A stretch of DNA of 64,000 bases, taken from the IMG/VR virus record IMGVR_UViG_3300022602_000078, positions 5,652 through 69,651 of that record. One strand, written 5' to 3'. The notes below the pieces were generated by a model that saw nothing but the letters and a program-made list of their open reading frames with translations, was not told the origin of the DNA and did not search any database. This DNA comes from a virus. Positions 5,219 through 32,563 of the stretch are shown piece by piece (the first letter of the stretch is position 1; the number at the start of each line of letters is the position of its first letter). A program made the position numbers and the translations under genes.

Positions 5219-8200
5219 TTATGTTATTGCTAATATGAATGGTGTCGTATAAGCATATAAGCTCTGTACAAAGGTTCTACCACTTAATACGCCAGTTGCC
5301 TGACTAATTACTAATCCTGTACCAATACGGAAATCACCGTTTTGATCAGTTGAAGTAAAGAATACCTTACCACTATTTAACTGAATTGTTTCCTGAGACT
5401 GTACAGGATCGGCAACTCCTCGTTGTGGTAATGCTCCATAGTTCGCTCCAGCACCTACATATTCAAATAAGTACCCAGACGCACTCAAATAACTACGTTG
5501 ATAAAAGTTAACAATGCACCCGTCTGGGAATAATAATGGATTTCTTATTCCTTCGGTTATTGATACAATATGATAGGTGCCTGGTCTCGACCAATAACTT
5601 AACCCAGCGTATACGCTATTATAATTGCCACCTGTTTCTAAATCATATATTATTTGTTGTAGTATTAATGAGACATCTCTTACGCATTTAGTAGCTTGCC
5701 CATCACTCATGGTGTATCCATCGTATACTGATGAATAATACTGCTGTACAAATGCTACAGTTTCTGCCGTTAAGAAATCAAGATTGTCTTGAATTAACGA
5801 TACTGCCGCACCCGATCCTGCAGGTATTGTTCCAGAAGTCTTAATTGATCTTGGGGGAACTACAGATTCCGCTTCAGCAAGACTACCGGCATTAACAATA
5901 TTAATTATATCTTCAAATCTTAAATCAATAAATGATTGTGATTCTATACCCCCAACAATAAGTTGATTAAACACTTGGGTAGCAGTATTACCAGTAGTAA
6001 CACTAACAGGTATATTAGAAATAATGTTATTTGTAACCAGTGATAAATGTTGAATTGATGCGATATGTGCAGCAATTTGACTAGTAGTTGGTCCTTGATA
6101 ACTGCTAGTAGTAGCTGCTGATAAAATATTTGTGCCTGGTGCATATGGTTGCTGAATCGATGGTGAACTAGTATCTACAGTATAATATGCATTACCACAG
6201 AAATATAATGTAAAATAATTAGGATTATCTACAAATCCACCGCCATTGGTTAATGCTTGGTTTAGTGTAATACTATTAAAGTTTACATCAGTTACTACCG
6301 TTCCTGTAGCAGCATACCATTTTCCATAATTAGGATTAGGTACTCCATGAATTTCTACATACGAAAGACTTTGATCAGGTAATGCATTTCCATTGACATC
6401 CACATACTGTCCAAATTCATTATACAAATATTGATAAGCATCATATTGATGACCGAATCGATCTTCGATATATACTGTATTACCGATATATACATCTGTA
6501 GTATCGATATTAGTAAGATTAATTGTTCCCGATATTAATGTACTAGTACTGGGTTGAGCATTTAGAAATCCCGGAAATCCTTGATTATTTAAATATGGGG
6601 TATAAATTAATGAACTAGAGGACTTACTAGCAAACGATGGAATCGATACCGGAGGAATAACCTCCATAACTAATCCAATGTGAGGTCTATTTCCTAAGTC
6701 TGGAACAAATATTTCAACTTGTCCTTGATTATTCGGCCAGTATCCTTGAGGATAATATTGATCTAATCCGGTAGGCCCTGGACTAAATGGGTAGGAACGA
6801 TTAATAGGATTATAGACGGTTCCGCTAAATTGTCTTTTTCCATAACCTTTAGCAATTAATGCGTAATTACCAAAGTTACAGTTAGAGTTGGTGATCGATC
6901 CAATTCCGCCATTATCGGCCAATACTGCAATATTATTAAAAATAGTAAACACCGATACTAACTGTGCATAACCATCATTAGTAATGTGAACGCCGATTCC
7001 GCCTTGTGTTAATTGCGTATATGCATCATAAACAAATGATTGAATCGGGCTAGTATCACTAATAACACTGCCGTCAACTAAACTACCTCCCATACCGCCA
7101 ATTTGATCAATAAGTCTATCATCCCAGGTACTAGCACTACCAGTATATTGTAATGAATATGTTTCTACTTGCGAATCTTGTAATGGAAAAATCTCTGTAT
7201 TACCGAAATACAATGTAGCATTAATTCCAAATCCTATAGTGGATGTACTTAATCCTATCAAATAAGTACCGGTCGATAGTTTTACTAATTCGGTAATGGT
7301 AGGAGCAATATTTACATCTGATCCATTGAGACCAGTTAATGCAAATAATGCGCTACCGGCATATATTGGAGGTGCAACGCTTGGACCATTGGCAATAATA
7401 CTGCTAATAATATTAAAATTTCTAGCCACTGCTTGTTGTGGCATATAATTATTACCATATGCAAAAAATGTATTAATAACCTGTGTCGATATTGTGCCAG
7501 TAACTATTGCAACTGGTTCATTGGCAATAATTTGTGCTGCTATACTAGCAACATAATTAATTGCTGCAGTTGTGGTTGATATTTGATTAGCAACATAGTT
7601 ATATGCTTGATTCCAATAACTTAATCCTGCTTGGATACTATTGCTATTTCCACCTAATAATATATCTTGGCTTACAGCGTCAACAATTAGTCCGGTATCT
7701 CGATAGCATAATGCCTGATCGTAATTGAAAGAATTTGCATTATATGTATTATTAATCCAAGCAACAATTTCTGCTTGTATGAATGATTTATTTGTTGTAA
7801 TAATATTATATGTAGCTAATGCGCTAGGGCTACTTAATTCTATTAAACTTACTGGACGTAATGGAGACGCCGCACTAGGTCCATTACTAATAATATTTGT
7901 AATAGTATTAATTGCTGTTACTAAGGTTGTTGCATCACCTGAAGAACCTGGTTGCATTCCTAATACTGGTGGTATTATTGTTTGATTCAATGTATATGTA
8001 GCAGTAAATGCCGAAAGAGTTTGATTTAATACTAATGCAGATGTTAACGTCTTTAAGAAATTAAATGCTGCTGCAGTAGGAGCAACTTCTTGTGGTATGA
8101 TAGGATCTGTGCTATTGCTGGCATAATAACTTAATCCCGCCTGAATACTTTGACGATTACCACCATATAATAAATCAAATACAACACTATTAATAATAAA

Positions 8201-12805: not shown

Positions 12806-13705
12806 TTAAACTGCGTTTGTAGCAATTGAAACTACCGAACCGCTAGCTGAACCAGTTGTCCACTGAGCTCGTCCGCCGTCGGCAATTAAAAAGCTACCAG
12901 ACTTAGCATATTGATATAAAGTTGCATAATTCATTGTTAATTTACCAACAAAATATGTGCTACCATTAGCATCCGTAGCAATAACTGACATCTGTCCAGC
13001 AGTTAATGATGTTGATGTAGTTACTAAATTACAAATACCGGTGCCTTGAGCATTTTCTATTAGATAACGATGACTACCTTTTTGTTTAACAATAGTGGAA
13101 GTTACAGCACTTGTGCCGCCATCGACTACAGGAATGTATGCTGTTGTGGCAATAGTGCCAGCTACTAAATCAACTGAAGTTACACCTGTAGTAAATGTAG
13201 CACCTGATCCAACATCACTAAAAGTGATTACGTTTCCTGTTAGATTCGAATTAGCATTATTTAGAGAAAGACCTACAACCTTAGTACTTGGGTTAACTGC
13301 TAGTACATAAGTTGTTCCTGTGTTAATTCCTGTTCCTACAGCTTTCATACCAACATAGATACCATTAACTCCATTCAATGTTAATGTATTTGTAGTATTT
13401 GTAGTAACTGTGGCTGTTTGAGTTGTCGGTGCAACAACTGTAACAGTTGGAGCAGATTTATATCCGCTACCTTGATTGGTAACAGTTATCGAAGCAATCG
13501 CACCTGTTGAAGTAGTAACTGTTAATGATGCAGTAGCATTTAAACCTGCTGCGTCGTCGGGTGCTGAAACTAGTGCTGTTACACCAGTAGAATAATGTGT
13601 GCCGCCGGCATTTACAGATGCAGTCACACCTTGATATTGAGTCATTACTTCACCTGCGCCTTGAGCGTTAGTCAAGAAGTATGTTTGTTTAATTGGACGT
13701 CCCAT
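12806..13705 (-). CDS. Virion structural protein (possible head decoration/fibre)
   Basis: 299 aa, Thr/Gly/Ala-rich, 'SITVTNQGSGYKSAPTVTV' module; directly after the capsid gene with its own promoter, strong SD and terminator. Confidence 0.6.
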   Translation of the reverse strand: MGRPIKQTYFLTNAQGAGEVMTQYQGVTASVNAGGTHYSTGVTALVSAPDDAAGLNATASLTVTTSTGAIASITVTNQGSGYKSAPTVTVVAPTTQTATVTTNTTNTLTLNGVNGIYVGMKAVGTGINTGTTYVLAVNPSTKVVGLSLNNANSNLTGNVITFSDVGSGATFTTGVTSVDLVAGTIATTAYIPVVDGGTSAVTSTIVKQKGSHRYLIENAQGTGICNLVTTSTSLTAGQMSVIATDANGSTYFVGKLTMNYATLYQYAKSGSFLIADGGRAQWTTGSASGSVVSIATNAV

Positions 13706-13711
13706 TTTATT

Positions 13712-13800
13712 TTCTCCTTATGAAAACACAGCGTTCTAGGCTGTACGCGGTTGGATTTCCGCATAAAACTTACACTATGTAAGTTATACCATGTATTTAG
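13712..13800 (-). promoter_or_regulatory. Late promoter (CTAAATA) plus three-hairpin structured 5' leader
   Basis: Stems AACTTACA/TGTAAGTT, TATGCGG/CCGCGTA and ACAGC/GCTGT lie between the promoter (13794-13800) and SD AAGGAG. Confidence 0.65.
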
Positions 13801-18297: not shown

Positions 18298-21282
18298 TTA
18301 TTGAGCAGGAGATGGTTCGGCGCCGCCTTCTGAACCGCCCATGTCGTCTGGAATTGCACCTTCTGTACCTGGTGCCGGAGCTTGATTATTACTTAAATCG
18401 CCAAGATCACCGGCAATACCATTGGCAGTAATTCCTGCACTACGTAATTCTGCACTGGCAGATAATTCTGTATTTTTAGAAATATTCTCTTCTTTCCACA
18501 TATGCTCGTTTTCCGCAATTTCTTCAGCAGTTAAACCTAAGAAACGTTTCATAGCATATCTATTACTAACAAATGGTATAGCAACTACAGCGTTAAATGT
18601 ATTAACACGAGCTGTATCCATTTCTGCTTGACGGTATGAAGCAAAGTTTTGTGGTGGATTAAAACGAATATCAAAAATATTAGAATCTATGTTAATACCT
18701 TTGGCATGTAGATATAGTTTAAATTCTGTATCAAATGTATCATGCATTAGGCTTTGTAAACGTTCACAATATTTGTTAAAACGCAATTCTTGAATATATG
18801 CAGTGCCTACACGACCATCATTAAAATTACTACCCCCATCATCTGATCCGGTAGGCAAATAGCTACTGGGTATGCGTAATGCACGGAATAATTTGTTAGT
18901 AAAATATTTTAAATCGTCTATTTCTCCAAGATTTTGTCCACCTTGTAAAATTTCAACTTTACTACCACGACCTTCTGCTGTTTGTGGGAAGAAGTAATCT
19001 TCATTGATTGAATTTTTAACGAAGATTCCTGCGTCAATGGCAAAAGTATGGTAATTATTCCATCTTTCTTTTCCATCAATGGTTATAGTCCCGGTATCTC
19101 TGTTAAAAACTTTTTCAATTTTAACTATTCTATGATTAAAATTATCAATCTCTCTAACAAAATACTTCCAATTTTTATATCCAAACTTTTCTAATAATCT
19201 ATCTAATTTGCTATATCCAAATTTAGAAAAATCTATTTTGCACTGTGCATTTTTATAATCTAATGGTTTGCTGTTTTCATTTTTTACTAGTGTTAATAGC
19301 TGTGCATCATTGTCACAAAGTTCTAAAATAGCATCTTTATTTTTAATTCCATTTTTTACTTTATTCGCCACAAGTTGTAACATTTCAAAAGTTAAGTTTA
19401 ATGGTTGATTTTTAATTTTTACGCGAGTATTGAGATTAGAAATAAGTTTATTTGCAAATTCTGGATTACTGGCAATATATTCTTTTCTAGATCTGCTGGC
19501 ATTTTCTTTATAAGAATCACGAGTGGTGGGATCATTTTGTCTCATCCAAACTGACTTTTTCTGTGCAACACGAATGTTCCAAAGAGCAGTTAGACGCCCT
19601 TCTTCCGACATATTGGTCCAATGTTCTTTTAGTGTTTTACTAATTTTATCGGTTAACTGTCGTCTATAATCATCGCTCATGTTTTCCCAAAATTCTTTCT
19701 TTTGAGCAGCATGATACAGAATATGGTCTTCTTTATTCATATAGGTTAAATTTCTAGGATCATTATTGAATCTATTGTGATCTTTGTGATGAACCACAGT
19801 TCTAGGACTTAAACTATATTCCTCAAGATAACAAAATTCTTGATGTTTTTCTATCTTTCTAAAAAACTCTGCAACGGTTCTATGAGTCCATATCCATGAT
19901 TTTTTTTCATGGTCCCATACTTGTTGATAGTCATTACCATTAGAAGCAATATCTTCATTTTTAGTATTAAAAGAAATTAAACTATCTTTTTCTGTTAGAT
20001 CTTTTGCTTCAACAAATCCGCGGCCAAATACGGGAATTTTATGATCAGGCGTGCAAGTAAATGTCTTACCATTGTCTAATGTAATTTCAATTACATCTGT
20101 ATTTTTTCTTGTTATACCGGCCCAATCGATTACACCAGGAACTATTTTGCCTGTAACAGGATCACAGCTATAAGCCCAGTTTTCTTTGCCTTGCTCAAAT
20201 TCTTTTATAATTTCATTTAATGACAAGGTTCTACCATCTAACAAAGGAATTTTAGTTTCAAGGTCAAGGCATAACGGATTATAACTGGCGTCTATGACAC
20301 TTTGGCTACCACCATTTGAACTAGGTATTCTGCGTTGGTTTACTTCATTCTTTACACGCTCGACAAAACTCATAGCTAAGTGACTGGGCATATTACCTAC
20401 ATCAATATAAAATACACGACGTTCTGGCGCACGTTGTACACGATAGATAATAATAGCATCTTCTAATAATTCTTTTTGTTTGAATACTTTGAAGATTGTT
20501 TCCATCAAACTATTTCCGAATGGATAATTGTTATCCATTCCTTCGCTCATGCTGATATGTATTACATGTCGAGCGTCGATGGCATATTGATTTTGATTAT
20601 TGCTGAATCTACTACCGCTAGCTCCTGTAGGAAATGACCCCACCATGCCCCGACTTCCGCCGGCCCCGCCTTGCCCTGTACCATAACTGCCGCCGAATTG
20701 GCTTCCACCTCCTTGTATATTTGATGGTTGAATGGCAGTTGTGGCCAGGGTTTCAAGATTGGGATTAAAGTCTCGAATAACATATTGCTCAGGTTTTTTA
20801 CCATCACTTTCATTAACAATAACTTTGTCCACTTTAGCAGGATCAATATACATCCAAGCCTGAGTTTCAGGATCTCTTACAAAAAATGTATCACCATACT
20901 TAAAGGCATTTCTTACAATTTTAAAAATTCTTGTGTGAAACTTGTTTAATTTGGTCCATGTCTGCAGATATTTTTTAATGATTTTAATTTCAGTAGTAGT
21001 AGCTTGTTCTTTAAAAAATATTTGAAATGGAGTACCATTTTCAACATTAGACTGTGTACAAAATTCTGCTAAAATATCAAAAGCAGCATTGACTTCACTA
21101 TCCCAATCCATGGTATCATATTGCCCATAACGTTCAAGTCGATTAGGATGGCCAGAATAAACATCAGGCAAATAACTAGAGTAATTAGTTCGGCTGAGGC
21201 TACCGCCTGAATTCATTGATCCATTAACCGGACTTAATTGTCCTGAAGTATTAACGGGAGTAAAATATTTTTTCCAACTCAT
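18298..21282 (-). CDS. gp20: Portal vertex protein (gp20), intein-containing
   Basis: 'LLEDAIIIYRVQRAPERRVFYIDVGNMP', 'EDYFFPQTAEGRGSKVEILQGGQNLGEIDDLKYF', 'ELRFNKYCERLQ'. Confidence 0.95.
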   Translation of the reverse strand: MSWKKYFTPVNTSGQLSPVNGSMNSGGSLSRTNYSSYLPDVYSGHPNRLERYGQYDTMDWDSEVNAAFDILAEFCTQSNVENGTPFQIFFKEQATTTEIKIIKKYLQTWTKLNKFHTRIFKIVRNAFKYGDTFFVRDPETQAWMYIDPAKVDKVIVNESDGKKPEQYVIRDFNPNLETLATTAIQPSNIQGGGSQFGGSYGTGQGGAGGSRGMVGSFPTGASGSRFSNNQNQYAIDARHVIHISMSEGMDNNYPFGNSLMETIFKVFKQKELLEDAIIIYRVQRAPERRVFYIDVGNMPSHLAMSFVERVKNEVNQRRIPSSNGGSQSVIDASYNPLCLDLETKIPLLDGRTLSLNEIIKEFEQGKENWAYSCDPVTGKIVPGVIDWAGITRKNTDVIEITLDNGKTFTCTPDHKIPVFGRGFVEAKDLTEKDSLISFNTKNEDIASNGNDYQQVWDHEKKSWIWTHRTVAEFFRKIEKHQEFCYLEEYSLSPRTVVHHKDHNRFNNDPRNLTYMNKEDHILYHAAQKKEFWENMSDDYRRQLTDKISKTLKEHWTNMSEEGRLTALWNIRVAQKKSVWMRQNDPTTRDSYKENASRSRKEYIASNPEFANKLISNLNTRVKIKNQPLNLTFEMLQLVANKVKNGIKNKDAILELCDNDAQLLTLVKNENSKPLDYKNAQCKIDFSKFGYSKLDRLLEKFGYKNWKYFVREIDNFNHRIVKIEKVFNRDTGTITIDGKERWNNYHTFAIDAGIFVKNSINEDYFFPQTAEGRGSKVEILQGGQNLGEIDDLKYFTNKLFRALRIPSSYLPTGSDDGGSNFNDGRVGTAYIQELRFNKYCERLQSLMHDTFDTEFKLYLHAKGINIDSNIFDIRFNPPQNFASYRQAEMDTARVNTFNAVVAIPFVSNRYAMKRFLGLTAEEIAENEHMWKEENISKNTELSASAELRSAGITANGIAGDLGDLSNNQAPAPGTEGAIPDDMGGSEGGAEPSPAQ
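19012..20271 (-). mobile_element. Intein (420 aa) with HNH homing endonuclease
   Basis: Starts CLDLETKIPLLDG (block A), 'TCTPDHKI' (block B TxxH), ends 'HTFAIDAGIFVKN' followed by Ser; internal 'VVHHKDHNRFNNDPRNL...H' HNH motif; removal restores YNPL|SINEDYFF. Confidence 0.93.
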
Positions 21283-23616: not shown

Positions 23617-24486
23617 ATGCAAAATAATCCTGTTCCAAAAAAAGCAAATCCTTTGGCCAACTATATGCGTCAGCCAAAGATTTATATCAAATTACCTAGT
23701 ATGGGTAATTATTGGCCCATGGGAAGTATTGTAATGCCCGATACCGGAGAATTACCTGTTTATTCCATGACTGCCAAAGATGAATTGATGTTTAAAACTC
23801 CAGACGCACTGATGAATGGACAGGCCATGGTAGAAGTTATACAAAGCTGTATGCCTAATATTAAAAACGCTTGGGATTGTCCTACTATAGATTTTGATGC
23901 TATTCTTATAGCTATAAGATTGGCTACATATGGCGATAAGATGACTATATCCCATAAAATTCCTGTAATTAACGAAGAAGTAGATCACGAATTAGATTTA
24001 AGAATGGTATTACAACAACAACAGAATAATCGTTGGATCGAACAAGTGGCGGTCAGTGAGGACTTTATTATATTTGTAAGACCGTTAACTTATAAACATA
24101 TGACTAAAACTAATCTTAAAAACTTTGAAACTTCAAGAATTTTAAATATGGTTAACGATGAAACTATTTCCGACGAAAAGAAAATGGAAATGTTTAATAT
24201 CAGCTTTACTAATCTTACCAAAGTCACTGTGGATTTGATTACAGATAGTATTGCTAAAATTGTTACTAATGAAGGTGAAGTATCTGATAGAAAATTTATC
24301 GCAGAATTTATTGCCAATTCGGATAAGGATATGTTTAAACAGGTACAGGAACATCTAACAGAACTTAAAAAGAATAATGACCTTAAATCTCTAGAGTTCA
24401 CTACTACAGAAGAACAACAAGCAGCGGGTGCTCCTGCCACTTATACAATACCAGTTAGTTTTAATAATTCTGATTTTTTCGACTAA
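23617..24486 (+). CDS. Baseplate hub / tail assembly chaperone (gp26-like)
   Basis: 'IKLPSMG...VYSMTAKDELM...DFDAILIAIRLATYG'; ends 'SDFFD'. Confidence 0.7.
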   Translation: MQNNPVPKKANPLANYMRQPKIYIKLPSMGNYWPMGSIVMPDTGELPVYSMTAKDELMFKTPDALMNGQAMVEVIQSCMPNIKNAWDCPTIDFDAILIAIRLATYGDKMTISHKIPVINEEVDHELDLRMVLQQQQNNRWIEQVAVSEDFIIFVRPLTYKHMTKTNLKNFETSRILNMVNDETISDEKKMEMFNISFTNLTKVTVDLITDSIAKIVTNEGEVSDRKFIAEFIANSDKDMFKQVQEHLTELKKNNDLKSLEFTTTEEQQAAGAPATYTIPVSFNNSDFFD

Positions 24487-24710: not shown

Positions 24711-25504
24711 CTTTTATAATCAATACGCTTTATTGACTTCTTAAGTATAGAAATTTCATCAAACTCCGCATCAATAATGGTTTTATCCACCGATTCTTTA
24801 AGTGGTTTTGCTGCTATTTGTTTTGATTCAAATCCTGCTCTAGTAAGACGTTGATCAATGTTAGCAAGTTGTTGTTTTAATTGAGTAACTTCATCATTGC
24901 CGCCGCGATTACTGCGTACACTCCTTTGTGGAGCACCATCTCCCTGATATCGATCTCCCCGATAAGGCTGTGAAGGTCCGCCGAATTTTTGTCCCGATCT
25001 AGCAGTATGATAACCTTTACCAAACCCTCCTCCGAAAGCTCCTATAGTTTGAGTGAGACCACCGGCTGCTTGTGCTGTAACATCACCTAATCCTTTAACG
25101 AATCCAGGAGCAGCACTACCTGCTTTTTTTGCAAGTTTACCTGCACCTTTTAATGCACCTTTCCAAAATCCCTGTTTGGCAGTTGCATCATTCGTAGTAC
25201 CAGTTGCGGCAGCAGTTGCATCATTCGTAGTACCAGTTGCGGCAGCAGTTGCATCATTCGTAGTACCAGTTGCGGGGGCAGCGGCTGTAGTCGGGGTTCC
25301 TACTTGAGGAGTATTAGGATCAAATGTTGCAGCAGTAGCAGGGTTTACCTGTTGTCCTTGGAATCTCATAGTTAAATTAGAAGGGTTTGTTGTCTTAGGT
25401 TCCGAAGAACTAGCTGTAGAAATAGATTTTCCGTCCGGACCAACTAACCCTGTTGGTGCAGTTTCAGCTTCTTGTAATGCAGATATTAATTGTTCGATTT
25501 TCAT
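24707..25504 (-). CDS. Low-complexity late protein, possible internal head protein
   Basis: Start revised to MKIEQL (25504) because TATAAATA at 25528-25535 abuts 25525 and SD GAAGGA precedes 25504; LxE sites; Ala/Gly/Thr-rich. Confidence 0.6.
   Translation of the reverse strand: MKIEQLISALQEAETAPTGLVGPDGKSISTASSSEPKTTNPSNLTMRFQGQQVNPATAATFDPNTPQVGTPTTAAAPATGTTNDATAAATGTTNDATAAATGTTNDATAKQGFWKGALKGAGKLAKKAGSAAPGFVKGLGDVTAQAAGGLTQTIGAFGGGFGKGYHTARSGQKFGGPSQPYRGDRYQGDGAPQRSVRSNRGGNDEVTQLKQQLANIDQRLTRAGFESKQIAAKPLKESVDKTIIDAEFDEISILKKSIKRIDYKS
25179..25275. repeat. ~3 tandem 33-bp repeats (ATGTTNDATAA)
   Basis: Unit GCAGTTGCATCATTCGTAGTACCAGTTGCGGCA at 25179, 25212 and 25245 (last copy partial). 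Confidence 0.93.
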
Positions 25505-25527
25505 ATACAATCCTTCAATTGACATTT

Positions 25528-25535
25528 TATTTATA
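25528..25535 (-). promoter_or_regulatory. Late promoter TATAAATA
   Basis: Exact consensus. Confidence 0.75.
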
Positions 25536-25546
25536 CTTCAATTATA

Positions 25547-25568
25547 TAAAAGCGAACTCTGTTCGCTT
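25547..25568 (-). terminator. Terminator-like hairpin closing the structured non-coding region
   Basis: Minus strand AAGCGAAC-AGA-GTTCGCTTTTAT. Confidence 0.6.
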
Positions 25569-25609
25569 GCCGTTTCGCTCACGCTCACAGCATTTTATGG
25601 ATTTCTTTT

Positions 25610-25960
25610 TAATTCATGCAGATTGTATAGTCAGACGGAACCATTTTACTGGCTCCGTCCTTCTTGGTTTTCATGCGAGTTGCACAGCCAAGACATTGGA
25701 TGTAGGTACTTAGTTTATACACCGCTCCATGGACTCTGTACTTTTCCTGCCTACTACGACACATTATATAGCTATAATGCCCGAAACTCGTTCCTGATCC
25801 TTCGGGTGTTTAGGAGTATTGGTGTTTTCGAATGACAGCAAGACATTCTATACCAAAATTTAGACCCTCAGGGGAATATTTCAGTATGTACGTGTGTGAT
25901 TTCTAATCACTTTTTCCACAGCGGTATTACTGCTGGCCCGCTAACCTTATGTGCTGTATT
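25610..25960 (-). ncRNA. Putative large structured non-coding RNA (unclassified)
   Basis: Longest gene-free stretch in the window, ~42% GC by hand count, at least six stems; G-U wobbles in three stems favour the minus strand. Confidence 0.55.
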
Positions 25961-25968
25961 GATTTGCC

Positions 25969-26229
25969 TTAGATGCCTTTAGGGAGCCATGTAACAAACT
26001 TTCCGCCACAAGTATTACAAATTACTTTACCTGAATGAGGACCAAATGGACCTCTAATGGGTTGCCAATTATGAGTTTCGTGTATGCCTAAATTAATATG
26101 TATATTTTTGGGATTTTCTAAACTAAACAATTTCCATTTTTTATCTTGAATTTCTCGCCTTTTTTTAGCCCATTCATAATGATCTATCTTATCGTATGCT
26201 TTGCGCTTTTCCCAATTTAATTTTGTCAT
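25969..26229 (-). CDS. Small basic protein with putative zinc finger
   Basis: 'HETH...GPHSGKVICNTCGGKFVTWL'; ATGA-coupled to the upstream GIY-YIG gene. Confidence 0.7.
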   Translation of the reverse strand: MTKLNWEKRKAYDKIDHYEWAKKRREIQDKKWKLFSLENPKNIHINLGIHETHNWQPIRGPFGPHSGKVICNTCGGKFVTWLPKGI

Positions 26230-26657
26230 TTTATTGATTTTAATATATGTGAACCATGTACCCTAACACGAATATGACCGTTATAATAATCATTTGACTC
26301 TAAAACTCTTCTTAATACCTGTTCTTTAAGCTCTAGATATGATGTTTGTGCTTTAGATGTGCAATAATGTAAAATTTCTCTGGTGAAGTTTTCTTTGCCT
26401 AATTTTGCTATGTCTTTTGTTAGTTCGTCTGAGGAGCCATAATATGTTTGCCAATCTGATTGAATTTTACTTTTAATTTTCTTTCTTTTCTTTTTGCCGT
26501 TCTTCAACTTTACAGTCTTGTAGGTCGTTTTACTAAATTTTGCTAATTTTTTGCCTATATACTTCCTACCTGTGACAACATTTACAATTATGTAAACAAA
26601 CCCCACGCAATCTTCTGGTAGTTCTGTTACTTCTTTTCCTTGATAGGTCCACATCAT
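26226..26657 (-). CDS. GIY-YIG endonuclease (short, endonuclease II/Seg-like)
   Basis: '[19 protein letters not shown]', 'YYGSS', 'FTREIL', 'YLE', 'YYN'. Confidence 0.85.
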
Positions 26658-27305
26658 TTTACATTCTTTTTGATAGAAGATCTACCAATAGTCCACCCAA
26701 CTCCGGGACATTCTCTGCTTTTAACAGAGTTACTACCTTTACTCCACCAACGCTGACCAATTAGTGTTTTTGCTTTTTTTAGTTTAACCTCGTCACTTTG
26801 CGTTCTTCCGGACATTGCTTGAGATTGTTTTAATTTTTGTTCTTCGGATTTAGGTCTACCTTTCCCAGCTAAACTCATTTTTAGTTTATGCTCTTCGGAT
26901 TTTGGTTTACCCTTATTCCCCCTAGCATTTTTGTTTCCTAATAATGATATTTTATTTTTCATAGAAATTGTAGGCTTTTTAATTCCTATTTGTTTCTCTC
27001 TGTTCTGTTTCTTCCATTCTTCTGATCTAATAATTCCGCTAGTGCCATCACCGCCGTCTGTTAAATTTCTTAAAATACCTGTACCTAAATCTTTTCGGCC
27101 ATACCAACGAATCATTCTTCGCTCTAATGCCAAAGCACCTATTTCGGTAAGATGATGTTCGAGGATAATAATTTGAGACAAGTCTTTTGGCTTGGCAATT
27201 TCGCCTTTTCGTTTAGTGGTTGATCGTTTGCCTTTACCCTTACCTTATATAATAAGGAGTGCCATCCTTTCGAAGGTAAGCATAGACATAGAATTGTAAA
27301 TACAT
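26654..27305 (-). pseudogene. GIY-YIG/NUMOD3 homing endonuclease broken by a single-base frameshift
   Basis: ATG 27305 gives [21 protein letters not shown]-stop; removing one base at 27245-27246 restores YYIGKGKGKR and joins the 26654..27181 frame ('[10 protein letters not shown]', NUMOD3-like '[10 protein letters not shown]' repeats). Confidence 0.85.
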
Positions 27306-27374
27306 TGCTGATAGCTCCTATAAACTGTTAGAGCCAGTGGATGCGTCAACATCGCGACTGGCACTTTTATTTAT
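27306..27374 (-). promoter_or_regulatory. Late promoter and double-hairpin leader of the homing endonuclease
   Basis: ATAAATA 27368-27374; stem GCCAGT/ACTGGC plus GATG/CATC; a second stem encloses SD AGGAG. Confidence 0.65.
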
Positions 27375-27404
27375 CTGATTACTAACAACTGTATTAATAA
27401 ACCA

Positions 27405-27599
27405 TTAAGCCGATTTGGCTTCCTTGCGAGCATTCTTTTCAGCAGTAATTTCATTACGGCGCACTTTAATTAATTTGCTCATCTCGGCCAATGCTTTGCG
27501 AGCACGAGTTCCAGCTGCGGAATTTCCTGACTCAAACTTAGAATTTTCTAATAGATATACGTCTAATGCTGACTTAATCTGATCTGTTGTTTCTGACAT
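27405..27599 (-). CDS. Histone H1-like protein Hc1 family
   Basis: 'ENSKFESGNSAAGTRARKALAEMSKLIKVRRNEI' matches the Hc1 core G-N-x-A-A-x-x-R-x-R-K. Confidence 0.8.
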   Translation of the reverse strand: MSETTDQIKSALDVYLLENSKFESGNSAAGTRARKALAEMSKLIKVRRNEITAEKNARKEAKSA

Positions 27600-27891
27600 T
27601 TTGTTTTTCCTCTTTTTTTAATTGTCGAAGCCTTGCTTTTTCTTCCAAAGCAATTTTTTTAGCTTCTAGCATCTCTTTTCTTTTTTCTCTAACCTGTTTA
27701 TAAACTAGCTTAGAAAGATTAAGCATCTCCTTTTCAATTTTACGCATAGCCCTAATCTGGCTACGTAATCGAATACTAGTGTCTAATCCTGTATGGGTAA
27801 TAAACACTCTATGGTAGTTATGTAATGCTACAGCACGATCTATATATTCTGAATATAGCTTTTGATATTGTTCTAAATAATCAGGCGACAT
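27574..27891 (-). CDS. Basic helical hypothetical protein
   Basis: 105 aa, overlaps both neighbours, Lys/Arg-rich C-terminus. Confidence 0.65.
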   Translation of the reverse strand: MSPDYLEQYQKLYSEYIDRAVALHNYHRVFITHTGLDTSIRLRSQIRAMRKIEKEMLNLSKLVYKQVREKRKEMLEAKKIALEEKARLRQLKKEEKQNVRNNRSD

Positions 27892-29665
27892 TTTCTACAT
27901 CAGTGCTATAATTGGTAAAACCATTTTCTTTAATGACACGTAATACATTGTTCACACGACCAATCAATTCGTCTTTATGTGAAATGAGATATATATTTTT
28001 TCCTCGTTCGCGAGCCATCTTTTTCAATACTGCCAGAGAGCTTTCTACACCGGCACTATCTAAACCGGCATCGATTAATTCGTCGATAAACAATAAATTA
28101 ATGCTTTGGTACAATCCTTCCCAAACATCTCGGAAAGAAAAACTTAAACTTAAAATTAATCTATTACGTTCTCCTCGAGACAAATTATCAAAGTCTAGTT
28201 CTTGACCTAGTTGTGTAATTTCTACTGTTAAATCATTTTGGAATACTACTTTGTGAGGTAATCCTAAACGATCGATATAATATGCTAATCTTTTGTTCAA
28301 ATAGTTTAAATTTTGATCAATAATTTTTTTACGTATAAAACTATCTTTATTCGTTAATAGTTTATGTAAGAATTCTTGGTGATCTCTTAGTTTTGTTAAT
28401 TCATTAATTGAATCCCAAGAAATATCTTGAATGGCGGATTTCTTTAAATCTTCGATTTGTTCTTCATACGGATTTTCTTCCACCATTCTTTCAGCAAGGC
28501 TTTTTTCTAAATTATCTAAATTATTTTTATGACCTAATGCTTCTGCTTCGGTATCGTAAAATGTAATAGGTCTGCGAGATAGTTTTCCTATTTCAGCAAT
28601 ATTAGCAGTAACACCCCCGAGGTCATCTTTAAGTTTAAAAAGATACGCAGCGGCTTCGTTTAAATTCTTTTCGGCTGCGGCAGACATTTCTCGATGTTTA
28701 TGATCCTGTAATTGCTGTTCACAAGAAGGGCAAGTATGATCTTTTAATTTATTTGCTTCCTTCTTATATTTTTCTACAGATTTTTCAGCCTGGGTAAGAG
28801 CTGATTCTAATGTAGCCTTCTGCTTATTAAGGCTAGTAATTTTATTATTATTTTCTTCCCAAGTTTTTAGTTCTATATGTAATTTTAATTCTTTATCGAT
28901 ATTAACCGATTCCAAATCAGCAATAGCCTTAGCAAGATTTTCTATGTCTTGTTCTTTTTTAGTATTCCATGCTGAACTCTTAATTCCTAAACTATCGATA
29001 CTTTTTTGTACATTATTGTTAGCAGTTTTAATTGCCTCGATACGATTATTTTCAGATAAGATAGCATCTTTGGATTCTTTAATTAATAATTTTAAGGCTT
29101 CTGCTTTTTCACTTAATAGTGTAATACCTAGTAGTTGTTCAATAACCTCACGTTGATCCGCAGCACTCATGCTTAAAAATGGTTCAGTATAAGTGTTTAA
29201 TGCCACAAGATGTTTAAACATTGTGTGAGACATTTCTAATTTTTGTTCAATAGTCTTTTGTGTCTCTCGACTATCACCTTGGCTATCGTCCTCACCGGCA
29301 TCGTCCATCTTTAATTGTTCTTCGTTAACATACAGTTTTAGTACGTTAGGTTTACGGCCTCTTTCGATTCGATACTTATTACCGTCTTTTTCAAATTCTA
29401 CGGTAACTAACATGGATTTGCCATTAATCTTGTTAATTAAGTTTTCTTTTCGAATGTTGGTTAATGCTTGTCCATATAGAGCATAACTTAGTGCATTAAT
29501 AATAGTAGTCTTACCAGTACCGTTTCTGCTGCCGGTATCCTCACCACCGAGATCAAGATTGCTGCCTAATACAAGAGTCAGCTGTTGTCGATCAAAATCT
29601 ACAGCCTGGGTTTGGTTTCCAACTGATAGGAAATTCTTCACGGTTATATTACGGATCTTAAACAT
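27881..29665 (-). CDS. gp46: Recombination endonuclease ATPase subunit (gp46, SbcC/Rad50-like)
   Basis: Walker A 'NGTGKTT', zinc hook 'CPSC', signature 'LSRGE', Walker B 'LLFIDE', H-loop 'LISH'. Confidence 0.95.
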   Translation of the reverse strand: MFKIRNITVKNFLSVGNQTQAVDFDRQQLTLVLGSNLDLGGEDTGSRNGTGKTTIINALSYALYGQALTNIRKENLINKINGKSMLVTVEFEKDGNKYRIERGRKPNVLKLYVNEEQLKMDDAGEDDSQGDSRETQKTIEQKLEMSHTMFKHLVALNTYTEPFLSMSAADQREVIEQLLGITLLSEKAEALKLLIKESKDAILSENNRIEAIKTANNNVQKSIDSLGIKSSAWNTKKEQDIENLAKAIADLESVNIDKELKLHIELKTWEENNNKITSLNKQKATLESALTQAEKSVEKYKKEANKLKDHTCPSCEQQLQDHKHREMSAAAEKNLNEAAAYLFKLKDDLGGVTANIAEIGKLSRRPITFYDTEAEALGHKNNLDNLEKSLAERMVEENPYEEQIEDLKKSAIQDISWDSINELTKLRDHQEFLHKLLTNKDSFIRKKIIDQNLNYLNKRLAYYIDRLGLPHKVVFQNDLTVEITQLGQELDFDNLSRGERNRLILSLSFSFRDVWEGLYQSINLLFIDELIDAGLDSAGVESSLAVLKKMARERGKNIYLISHKDELIGRVNNVLRVIKENGFTNYSTDVENVA

Positions 29666-30521
29666 TGTGTCCTTTTATTTTTTCTTTAAGTTCTTTTAAT
29701 GTTATCGAGCATTTAATGTATTTTGATCTATTTTCTTTATGTGGTAGCATTGTTAAATTACAAATATGTCCAATAATTTCTGGAGAAACATTATTTTTAA
29801 ACCCACGTGTGATGCTATACATGTGATCTAAATGATAATCAGTTCTCCCTCGCCTTTCATAATTTTCTAAAAGAGTTAAATTGTTTCTATTTGTTTCGGC
29901 CCATACTTTATTTTTATATAATTCAAATGCAGGAACTTCTTCTTCGGGTATAGCAGTACCGTTTTTTACCCTAATTGCTCGACATCGTTGTCCTATTGCT
30001 CTACTTTCTTCCGGTGTTCTTTTTGCAATAGTATTTTTATGAGATTCTACTGCTTTATGTTTTATATTAAAATCTTGTAAGGGATTTTCTACATTGTATT
30101 TTTCTAAACAAGTTTGTTTACGTTTATTGTTAACAAGTTGAATATCTTTATTTTTCCAAGTTTCTTGTTTTTTCTTTATTAATTGTTCGTGTGCTGTTTT
30201 ATTTTGTCGATAGTTTTTATCATATGTTGCATCTTTTTTTAATTTAATTTTGTCGACCTTACTAACATTATTAACACCGTATTTTTCTATTGTAGTATTT
30301 GATGCTTTTTCTCTGTTATTAAAATTTTCATCCCCATACCTTTCTTTTTTAGTTGCTTTATTTTTAGCGGTATTCTTAAAATTTTCATCCCCATATTTTA
30401 TTTTACAGGTTTCTCTTTTTCTCTTTTGTATTTCAGGACAGCCTGAGACACTTTTGCTACAACAAAATGTTCCATTTTTAAATTGATAAGACGCAGTTGT
30501 TTTACAATATTCACAAATCAT
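29658..30521 (-). CDS. Free-standing putative HNH-like homing endonuclease
   Basis: Likely start MICEYC (30521); repeated 'KxxxTxxxKYG' DNA-binding modules; C-terminal 'YHLDHMYSI...GHICNLTMLPHKENRSK'. Confidence 0.7.
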   Translation of the reverse strand: MICEYCKTTASYQFKNGTFCCSKSVSGCPEIQKRKRETCKIKYGDENFKNTAKNKATKKERYGDENFNNREKASNTTIEKYGVNNVSKVDKIKLKKDATYDKNYRQNKTAHEQLIKKKQETWKNKDIQLVNNKRKQTCLEKYNVENPLQDFNIKHKAVESHKNTIAKRTPEESRAIGQRCRAIRVKNGTAIPEEEVPAFELYKNKVWAETNRNNLTLLENYERRGRTDYHLDHMYSITRGFKNNVSPEIIGHICNLTMLPHKENRSKYIKCSITLKELKEKIKGHNV

Positions 30522-31524
30522 TATATATTTCCATAAGTAGTCTAGAATCAAATTGGTCTGATTCTATTGTATTTATGCTTTCAGTAACGATTTGATCTAC
30601 ACTTTCAAACTTGCTGTCAGGATTATCATCTATAATTCCTTCTAAATTAGTTTTATCTTGTATAAGACTAATTTCTCTAATATCATAATCATTAATAAAT
30701 GTTTCTTTGATGAAACTAGCTTCTTCAAAACTAATATCGATATCTAAGTTCACTTTAATATGCATCTTAGACTGCATAATTTCATCTTTACGATCGATCA
30801 GTTCAGATAATTTTATATTAATATACTTAGGAGCATCAGGCCATGTTTTAAATTCCGGCTTTCCTCCCCATCCCAAAATCATCATACCTCTATCATTATC
30901 ACCCGCATCAGCAAAATTGTGTGGAAATGCATTGCCAATATAAATTACTTTACCTTTTTGTTGACGTTTGTGAAAATGTCCACTAAAAATGTAATCAGGG
31001 CCATTAAAATCTTCGGCACGTAATTGGCCATGATCGGGCATTTGTATCATTGCGTTCATATAAAATAGCGGCAATTCAAAATGTCCAAATACATATTTGC
31101 TTTTTAAAGCCTTCATATTTTTCCATTCGTCACCGATTAACCATGGAACCAAAGTCACATCTCCTATTGTAGTAATTTCTTCTACGACAGTGACGCCAGG
31201 TATATGATGGCCAAACCCCGAACTATGAATCTCTCGGCTATCTTTATAAAATAAGTCGTGATTGCCGGGAAACCAAAAAAACTGTTCAAAGGCAGCTCCT
31301 AATTTTTCTAAACAACGGAGACTGGAGTCTAACGTATATAGATTTAAACTATTACGATGATGACTCCAGTCTCCCAGAAAGATACAAGTTTCGCAACCGG
31401 CTTCCTGCGCCTGTTCGATAAACCAGTCTACAAACTCCTCGCAATCTTTGAGATGTGTAGGCGAATTGGACTTTAGACCAAAATGAATATCTGTCATCGC
31501 GGCTACTTTTTTAAATAAACCCAT
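30511..31524 (-). CDS. gp47: Recombination endonuclease nuclease subunit (gp47, SbcD/Mre11-like)
   Basis: Phosphoesterase motifs 'TDIHFG', 'FLGDW', 'PGNHD', 'GHFE', 'SGHFH'. Confidence 0.95.
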   Translation of the reverse strand: MGLFKKVAAMTDIHFGLKSNSPTHLKDCEEFVDWFIEQAQEAGCETCIFLGDWSHHRNSLNLYTLDSSLRCLEKLGAAFEQFFWFPGNHDLFYKDSREIHSSGFGHHIPGVTVVEEITTIGDVTLVPWLIGDEWKNMKALKSKYVFGHFELPLFYMNAMIQMPDHGQLRAEDFNGPDYIFSGHFHKRQQKGKVIYIGNAFPHNFADAGDNDRGMMILGWGGKPEFKTWPDAPKYINIKLSELIDRKDEIMQSKMHIKVNLDIDISFEEASFIKETFINDYDIREISLIQDKTNLEGIIDDNPDSKFESVDQIVTESINTIESDQFDSRLLMEIYNDL

Positions 31525-31654
31525 TATATTTCTTTGGCCTTATATCCGTTATGGAATTCCTATATTTTTTGATTTTTCTAAAACAGTATCGGCACATTGG
31601 CCGATCTGCCTTCGGAATTCGTTTTCAAAGTATAACATACGACCATCTTCAATT

Positions 31655-32563
31655 TCAACCTTCGGTAGAATCTTCTTCAGCAGTGTCATTGCTTTTGGGC
31701 ATACGAATATTTTTATATATTTCTGCTTGTCGAGCACTTTCCACAGCAAATTCTTGACTATTTTGTCTAGTTGAACTAGGTGTTAATCCTGCTTCTTCTA
31801 GCAAATCGTCTCGAATATTCTGACTTTTCTTTTCCAAATTTAGTATTCGAGTAAATGAATTAGTTACGGCCGCAGTATAATAAGCAAAGGGATTTTCGCT
31901 TTTACTTTCATCAAATTGTAGTCCAATATGACTTAGTTGTAGAATAGCTTGCCCTCGCATTTCGTCGACATATGTATAACCGCGCCAATTGCTACGTTGT
32001 GCATAGCGTTCGCTAAGTTTAATATACATTTTACCTAAATTTTCAGTAATACGTCCATGATCTTTGGAAAATTTACCAGTTTTGATTCCGCCTTTCCAAT
32101 GACTTTTACCCACGCATATTAATTCGCCATTATCATCATATTTCCAATGTTGGAATGGGGGAAAATTTACTTTATCGTGATTATCGGCGCGTGTTTTAGT
32201 AGTTTTCTTGCGTCCCGGAGCCAATGGAATATGATCAAATGTCATAATCCTAATAATTACATCTGTTTTAGCGATAGTTTTGTAATCGGCAATACATTCC
32301 GATAATTTAATTTTTTTATCACCGCTAGCTCTAGCAACGGAAAATGCTTGAATACCCAATCTTTTAGCACGATTACGTTTAGCATCTGCTATAGTTCGAA
32401 TATTAATCTTATCTAAACTTGTTAAAATAATATCATATTGATGATATTCGGGTTTACTAAAACTAGAAAATGAACATTTGCTTTTATGGATCTCTGCTAA
32501 CAAGTCTTTATTATTTAGGTATTTTATTTTTCTTGTGATTATCGGTATTCCGGCGTTTGTCAT
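31655..32563 (-). CDS. gp55: Late transcription sigma factor (gp55-like)
   Basis: 'YLNNKDLLAEI', 'NWRGYTYVDEM', 'FDESKSENPFAYYT...NSFTRILNLEKK'; upstream of gp47-gp46 as in T4. Confidence 0.9.
   Translation of the reverse strand: MTNAGIPIITRKIKYLNNKDLLAEIHKSKCSFSSFSKPEYHQYDIILTSLDKINIRTIADAKRNRAKRLGIQAFSVARASGDKKIKLSECIADYKTIAKTDVIIRIMTFDHIPLAPGRKKTTKTRADNHDKVNFPPFQHWKYDDNGELICVGKSHWKGGIKTGKFSKDHGRITENLGKMYIKLSERYAQRSNWRGYTYVDEMRGQAILQLSHIGLQFDESKSENPFAYYTAAVTNSFTRILNLEKKSQNIRDDLLEEAGLTPSSTRQNSQEFAVESARQAEIYKNIRMPKSNDTAEEDSTEG

Follow-up and report, generated by a model that had tools for sequence, protein, structure and literature searches.

Structured RNAs abut nuclease genes in OMEGA/HEARO pairs and in TIGR-Tas systems, as at the locus described here, and bridge RNA resembles the idea, developed below, of an RNA that pairs with both strands of its own DNA. 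The phage RNA reported here differs from all three in showing neither co-segregation with a protein nor an array or variable guide. The Ssn nucleases are similar in that a single-domain GIY-YIG protein is encoded beside DNA hairpins. However, in the accessible part of their description (PMC11893778) repeats spread genome-wide lie on both sides of the Ssn genes, but the motif and hairpin considered here occur together once in the complete genome of a relative (G004), and our protein is a member of PF19835 separated from the hairpins by a long RNA.

A different parallel is offered by ColE1 RNA II, a non-coding RNA that forms a persistent hybrid and is trimmed by RNase H to a primer, with the helicase loading on the displaced strand (available sections of PMC5043065). 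The phage RNA would likewise be a structured non-coding RNA of several hundred nucleotides, with a possible link to RNase H and a putative helicase-loading region downstream. It differs in belonging to a phage rather than a plasmid, in showing no sequence likeness and no identified counterpart of the antisense RNA I, and in its co-varying direct repeats and pseudoknots, which those sections do not describe for RNA II. Finally, the orphan Rfam motif Polynucleobacter-1 (RF01718; model length, 141 nt) was listed from Burkholderiales and from fresh water and estuary with no function given in the accessible text of PMC2864571, where we found no phage, nuclease or repeat context for it and where the supplementary drawing seems to reach further 3′ than the model.

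Here we describe an RNA from the window, by which we mean the whole 64,000-nucleotide stretch of IMG/VR virus record IMGVR_UViG_3300022602_000078 that was analysed. The RNAs that share its genomic slot fall into several interchangeable sequence classes, the window's being class C. It is one of a set of exchangeable RNAs that fill a conserved jumbo-phage slot; Rfam holds just a fragment of sibling classes from this family, and the window's RNA represents a real, apparently undescribed class. The class, the slot and the repeat rule presented below were undescribed in the literature searched, which was mostly open-access and was represented in part (including PMC7318152 and PMC6102473), and a term search of the main text of bioRxiv 10.64898/2026.10.21.760802 was negative.

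Covariation and pseudoknots in a gene-free stretch

The class C RNA is a structured non-coding element of about 350 nt on the minus strand at 25611–25958 (ends approximate), as supported by a 56-sequence alignment, the consensus fold and pair counts. An AGGC motif lies ~10 nt upstream, here and in relatives. The sequence-only reading had singled out a gene-free stretch of raised GC content at this place, and both properties were found: the window's list of ORFs of at least 100 aa has no entry within 25526–25968, and GC content is 0.425 over 25611–25958 against 0.345 for the whole window. Other gaps of 400–500 nt are also present in the window by the same list. That reading had suggested a comparison with Rfam; a scan of the window at gathering thresholds and at E ≤ 10 left the class C RNA unmatched, with chance-level matches only. 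It could not match the element to a tRNA, tmRNA, RNase P RNA or group I or II intron, and no Rfam or ARAGORN model of these kinds matched the region. Elsewhere in the window, an Rfam freshwater-2 RNA (RF02980, 74.9 bits) is located at 13703–13784 on the minus strand, ahead of a gene start.

Searches with blastn gave no match to class C or class A RNAs among cultured phages. Scanning GTDB with class A/B RNAs returned six matches, all in metagenome-assembled genomes and five of them on contigs shorter than 5 kb, and so gave no indication that these RNAs form a family in bacterial chromosomes. A promoter scan of 25400–27700 gave two weak sites, below the shuffle count.

Folded as a single sequence, the element is mildly better than its shuffles, a weak signal on either strand (z = −2.57 for the minus and −2.27 for the plus strand). 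Comparison among relatives provides strong evidence for a predicted RNA fold. A search with a 17-base motif led to at least 119 viral stretches, from which 62 non-redundant full-length copies were extracted and 56 were aligned (alignment A1). The structure was obtained from RNAalifold, to which three crossing helices were added by hand, one by mutual information and two by inspection. It comprises 59 pairs in 12 helices, with 97.8% of 3300 cells paired across the 56 sequences. Compensatory change on both sides was observed at 30 of the 59 pairs, with 0 of 500 shuffles as high and slid controls at 30–44%, all pair counts being made on the same alignment from which the structure was derived. The presence of a conserved, covarying RNA, unmatched in Rfam, beside the GIY-YIG gene is confirmed.

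Both predicted pseudoknots covary in this alignment, and the third added crossing helix is invariant. In pseudoknot 1 (25836–25956, minus strand), the 5′ end of the RNA (25952–25956) would pair with a hairpin loop at 25836–25840; 100% of cells are paired, and two of the five pairs change on both sides. In pseudoknot 2 (25702–25816, minus strand), a helix formed by 25813–25816 and 25725–25728, with both-side change at all 4 of its 4 pairs, crosses a helix formed by 25749–25754 and 25702–25707, with such change at 2 of 6.

The stems that had been proposed from the single sequence fared differently. Four of them (AGCGG/CCGCT, GTGATT/AATCAC, GTAGG/CCTAC and GACGGAGCCA/TGGTTCCGTC) are supported as helices 2, 4, 10 and 12, of which 2 and 12 are nearly unvarying and are less informative on covariation. 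The stem GCATTATA/TATAATGT does sit in a hairpin slot, one of variable length in alignment A1, and was left out of the pair count. The stem TCTTGG/CCAAGA with its inner GTGC/GCAT appears in the single-sequence fold alone and is missing from the family consensus. The long-range pairing GTATAG/CTATAC was unsupported, the same bases pairing with 25881–25887 in a covarying helix.

A conserved slot with exchangeable RNAs

The phages with this slot are kin of PA5oct, RaK2, PBECO4 and CBB, and the slot lies between the gp46/nuclease genes and the baseplate hub. In the window, the upstream operon (27881–32563, minus strand) encodes gp46/gp47-like recombination nuclease subunits and a late sigma factor, as identified by synteny with annotated PA5oct, RaK2 and CBB, and the other boundary is a baseplate hub gene (23617–24486, plus strand) identified by family matches. 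The RNA is preceded by a stand-alone GIY-YIG nuclease gene (26226–26657, minus strand; PF19835, phrog_447), assigned by family match and structure comparison, and by an 86-aa basic ORF with CxxC (25969–26229, minus strand), an optional insert. This zinc-finger ORF has no Pfam, PHROG or Atlas match of 0.9 or more, occurs in 9 of 80 class C pattern loci and is dispensable for the RNA locus. A gene resembling those of homing endonucleases (26654–27305, minus strand), its frame broken near 27245, is inserted just upstream of the conserved GIY-YIG gene, with a hairpin-like leader near it at about 27320–27370, and a 64-aa histone H1-like Hc1 protein (PF07432, E 5e-13; 27405–27599, minus strand) is encoded in the operon before the nuclease.

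We examined the best 80 of 518 confirmed GIY-YIG relatives, of which 10 end too soon and 70 are informative. A structured RNA was found in 69 of the 70, in 63 cases within 700 nt of the stop codon and in six behind an inserted ORF. Starting from the RNA, class A/B loci whose flanks suffice have a GIY-YIG gene upstream in 75 of 77 cases. The same holds for 71 of 80 class C pattern loci for which long flanking sequence was taken; the nine others comprise two that are too short, two chance matches, two with a PD-(D/E)xK resolvase gene and three from another kind of phage. RNAs of the family also occur behind genes for a PD-(D/E)xK resolvase, RNase HI or, as a positional analogue, EndoVII. Among 28 resolvase loci, many of them near-duplicates, none has a GIY-YIG gene and 26 carry the RNA or the downstream module: 15 have a class A/B RNA, nine (of one lineage) have an RNase HI gene immediately followed by an RNA of a further class, whose 5′ end is C-like, and two have another class together with the downstream module, while the last two have nothing. 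Sequence bodies and ends also occur in other combinations, as in a chimera whose 5′ end is of class B and whose 3′ half is of class C (L050, 3426–3720), in a new body under a C-like 5′ end (L365, 3620–4060) and, behind a resolvase gene, in a new body under a B-like 5′ end (L387 and L389).

Polynucleobacter-1 matches the 5′ part of sibling classes A and D, over ~140 nt, and scores 48–119 bits at 5 of 12 loci scanned. The window's class C lies below the gathering threshold (37 bits) and is unmatched even at E ≤ 10; with zero RF01718 matches in the window, its membership in Polynucleobacter-1 was rejected. The classes that bear this motif share with class C the genomic slot and a 3′ repeat–hairpin–repeat end, which points to kinship, and the orphan motif gains a phage context as a piece of a larger family.

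In cultured relatives, gene-poor gaps of 0.8–1.5 kb occupy the same slot in PA5oct, CBB and Phosso, and in Phosso an annotated RNase HI gene directly follows the syntenic gap. The slot of RaK2 is a 364-nt gap, in which such an element was not found by eye. The CBB gap is kept in 72 records. In its eight aligned copies, helices covary at 39 of 96 pairs, and the seven copies that reach far enough have a TATAAT box. They also share a direct repeat whose sequence differs between two phage groups, both repeat copies having changed, and a U-tailed hairpin between the repeat copies, with more hairpins downstream. A co-varying repeat was not found in the PA5oct or Phosso gap, the former carries annotated small CDSs, and Rfam gave no match in the four cultured syntenic loci. 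The accessible part of the PA5oct RNA-seq paper names four ncRNAs, none of them at the slot, and a search of its supplement by slot coordinates returned unrelated host rows only. We regard the CBB, PA5oct and Phosso elements as positional analogues of classes A–D, the likeness being one of position and architecture. Such an analogue is also present in the cultured E. coli phages 121Q, PBECO4 and Sharanji (record host K-12 MG1655), and the question of an origin, taken up below, is therefore testable.

The class C RNA and its downstream hairpins are also found in two much smaller genomes that lack a GIY-YIG gene, G008 (30.1 kb, 98% complete) and G009 (29.5 kb, 100% complete). Both are siphovirus-like (L392–L395), and their ORF families are head, tail and miscellaneous only. 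No polymerase, primase, helicase or initiator was found among their 66 ORFs of at least 70 aa with Pfam, in a scan that excluded one 1323-codon G008 frame, or among 30 G009 ORFs with PHROGs. Of 12 small-phage relatives for which at least 9.5 kb of sequence ahead of the capsid gene was available, only two match a known RNA class, both of the G009 strain. In L399, a long, non-coding, hairpin-rich stretch (5456–6368) matches G009's RNA in position.

Repeats, DNA hairpins and a candidate replication origin

In classes A–D, the 3′ end of the RNA consists of two copies of a 6–7-nt word, ~47–59 nt apart, that flank a hairpin. In the window, the word GCATGAA is located at 25670–25676 (copy 1, identified from the sequence and A1 relatives) and at 25613–25619 (copy 2, from the class C copies), on either side of the terminal hairpin at 25635–25658 (98.9% paired), all on the minus strand. 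The 6-mer copies are identical in all 61 parsed of the 62 class C sequences, and the 7-mer copies in 60. In class A, where copy 2 was chosen independently of copy 1, the copies are identical in 119 of 119 and 137 of 137 cases (overlapping sets), with four common variants. The first base of the class A repeat changes 30 times on the tree, each time in both copies, and 16 of 16 independent pairs went the same way (p = 3e-5). Neither the class A nor the class C alignment has a column that covaries with the repeats as a complementary third strand would. A duplex between the two copies was rejected, since the most stable mixed form is never seen and class C would hold a C–C mismatch. Strict identity of two short repeats for which no complementary partner was found in the RNA is an unusual evolutionary signature, and it points either to copying or to an RNA that pairs, out of register, with the DNA from which it comes. 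Identity would be required if copy 1 of the RNA paired with template-strand DNA at copy 2, or if one copy were copied from the other, and it may arise in one of these ways.

A second internal correspondence involves the invariant AGGAACGA at 25788–25795 (minus strand; invariant columns of A1). The GGAAC within it has the sequence of the terminal hairpin's 5′ arm and is thus the complement of the 3′ arm, which is invariant. Class A has an internal base that covaries with a terminal-hairpin pair, being complementary to one arm (89%) and identical to the other (82%), and the invariant strand of class C stands to its terminal hairpin as this base does. Judged by its complementarity, GGAAC is possibly a switch or a DNA-pairing strand.

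Immediately downstream of the RNA, 25536–25610 (minus strand) contains putative single-stranded DNA signals, namely an A-rich tract, a motif of the form GA-GC-loop-GC-GA (25575–25586) and a hairpin (25551–25567). The motif is found behind 53 of the 62 class C RNAs versus 0.08% of base shuffles, for a pattern drawn from the same loci on which it was scored. In the family at large, the RNA is followed by an A/T-rich tract and hairpins. Loops of the types C[TTC]G, C[GTA]G and C[GCA]G are the most frequent in these hairpins, on both strands, and differ from the loops within the RNA. Loops such as C[GTA]G are typical of single-stranded DNA, and we take the motif to resemble plasmid primosome assembly sites. 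The sequence-only reading had called the window's hairpin terminator-like; the hairpin exists, but a terminator scan did not call it, and its counterparts in relatives mostly have DNA-type loops. The window itself contains the motif, but its last hairpin loop is AGA and the combined motif test failed. In the complete 347-kb G004, where 27 tRNAs are encoded and, away from the slot, a permuted tmRNA, the motif with hairpin occurs once, at the slot, and the bare motif 13 times. A DNA-type module lies downstream of every class examined, small phages included. Ahead of the next gene, TATAAATA (25528–25535, minus strand) is presumably a match to a T4-type late promoter.

Among the ideas put forward in the sequence-only reading, an origin primer would fit this evidence best. 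Specifically, we propose, as a reading that may equally well prove right or wrong, that the slot holds a replication-origin module of Rak2/PA5oct-like jumbo phages, in which a ColE1 RNA II-like RNA is combined with single-strand initiation signals. This proposal starts from the observed structure, fixed slot, class exchange, repeat identity, downstream module and neighbouring genes, and would add to them transcription, an R-loop, priming and roles for the repeats and the nuclease. A transcript from the gp47–gp46–nuclease operon, or from a promoter of its own, would fold into a multi-pseudoknot RNA whose 3′ part would form a lasting hybrid with the DNA of the hairpin-and-repeat region. RNA repeat 1 would pair with DNA repeat 2 on the template strand, which would account for the rule of repeat identity, and the internal RNA strand would pair with one hairpin arm. 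RNase H (from the host or the phage) or the neighbouring nuclease would trim the RNA–DNA hybrid to a primer, and the displaced strands would expose the downstream DNA mini-hairpins for helicase and primase loading. Hints of RNase H for R-loop processing come from gene neighbours. In the complete GIY-YIG genomes G004 and G006, no match was found to RNase H, to a PD-(D/E)xK resolvase or to EndoVII (the EndoVII search having no positive control), and the RNase H would therefore be the host's.

In favour of an origin we count the fixed slot, occupied in 69/70 GIY-YIG, 75/77 class A/B and 26/28 resolvase loci; the RNase HI neighbours in 9/28 loci of one lineage and in Phosso; the non-coding slot gaps of cultured relatives, with covariation in the CBB gap; the DNA-type downstream loops and the single occurrence of motif and hairpin in G004, at the slot; and the presence of the class C RNA in ~30-kb phages without replication-gene matches. 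Counted against it are the mere 364 nt of the RaK2 slot, the match to a known class in just 2/12 small-phage relatives, an RNA more elaborate and more conserved in sequence than a primer needs, the four PA5oct ncRNAs that lie elsewhere in the accessible account, the lack of an RNase H, EndoVII or resolvase match in G004 and G006, the likeness of the CBB, PA5oct and Phosso elements to classes A–D in position and architecture only, with no co-varying repeat found in PA5oct or Phosso, and the window's AGA loop, which fails the motif test. We also count against it that no replication-linked skew switch was seen at the slot in G004, in a test that was uninformative. A literature search for a described origin in Rak2-like jumbo phages gave a sole mention, which concerns lambda, and the slot provides a concrete candidate. 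The RNA of G008 and G009 fits, without proving, a captured origin cassette, and these phages are possibly satellites or host-dependent replicons.

The alternative that survives best, although we consider it rather unlikely, is a large trans-acting RNA (a ribozyme, scaffold or self-assembling RNA) for recombination, packaging or host takeover, whose repeats would be twin protein sites or symmetric contacts and for which the DNA hairpins would be a separate neighbour. Such a function would suit the many invariant unpaired purine runs, the two pseudoknots, the long-range three-way covariation of class A, modular chimeras such as L050 and L365, and the single nuclease copy per record in 5/5 records. 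However, it leaves unexplained why the DNA-type module accompanies every class examined, also in the small phages, and a tolerant protein site would allow mixed repeats, which were never seen over ~30 changes.

A bolder form of the origin proposal, which as one joint reading we hold to be improbable, is an RNA-guided origin with captured, incompatibility-like classes. The RNA would recognise its own DNA on both strands and serve as the initiator instead of a Rep protein, the classes would be exchangeable in the manner of incompatibility groups, and the ~30-kb phages, lacking replication genes, would replicate as satellites of jumbo phages.

The neighbouring nuclease and other alternatives

By structure comparison, the GIY-YIG nuclease has an I-TevI-like catalytic fold (compared with 1ln0: Z 8.7, rmsd 2.4, 77 aligned). 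It carries a basic beta-hairpin, which is long, and lacks a separate DNA-binding domain; a PDB sequence search with this protein gave nothing significant. Residues Y22, Y33, E109 and N126 are invariant in 46 GIY-YIG sequences, and we take them to be equivalent to the corresponding I-TevI residues; the usual catalytic Arg of the family is not evident in the nuclease sequences. The label 'NAD synthetase', given to phrog_447 in PHROGs and in many phage records, stands beside a fold that is that of a GIY-YIG nuclease.

A particle in which the RNA guides or activates this nuclease, with the repeats as guide or target, had been suggested from the sequence and now appears very unlikely. The adjacency on which it was founded stands and is tight, with the stop codon at times within the RNA 5′ end, and a nuclease that has invariant Y22, Y33, E109 and N126, a basic hairpin and no DNA-binding domain would be a suitable partner. 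However, RNA class and nuclease are not inherited together: the classes are scattered over the nuclease tree with 21 changes against a minimum of 5, on a quick tree of 149 columns with class labels assigned by pattern rules under which some class B loci count as A, and the nucleases of L010 (class C) and L014 (class A) lie on zero-length branches. The particle is further weakened by the RNAs found without the nuclease, by the zinc-finger ORF being present in 9/80 loci, and by distant GIY-YIG homologues in cultured phages, 0 of 9 of which have a gap of at least 300 nt behind the gene; nor was a variable guide-length segment seen in the RNA. An obligate RNA–nuclease co-occurrence of the OMEGA kind was rejected, as the classes are scattered on the tree and each partner is found alone.

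The link between nuclease and RNA is positional, not obligate. On the simplest reading, the gene slot would be filled by the junction-cutting nuclease that a given phage possesses, and the RNA would belong to the place. Most simply, the GIY-YIG protein would then be its clade's junction-resolving or structure-specific nuclease, swapped elsewhere with a PD-(D/E)xK resolvase or EndoVII.

Also very doubtful is a cis-regulatory leader or attenuator that would link the end of the recombination operon to the late genes. The mutually exclusive pairing of the class A terminal hairpin, the U tracts after repeat 1 and the position at the end of an operon would be expected of such an element, but the gene that follows is not constant, and often it is convergent or preceded by a separate TAAATA motif. 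Moreover, leaders are seldom this large or exchanged as whole classes. A template RNA for a reverse transcriptase (retron/DRT) was rejected, PF00078 being present in 0/5 records, including the complete DTR genome G004, against 3/14 in the control.

Two further observations concern other parts of these genomes. G004 contains other gene-free gaps of raised GC content at 1–2077, 84496–85001 and 303534–304258, with no Rfam match at gathering thresholds. In the window, a 994-aa ORF (18298–21282, minus strand) carries an internal insert; we take the ORF to be portal-like and the insert to be an intein with an HNH domain.
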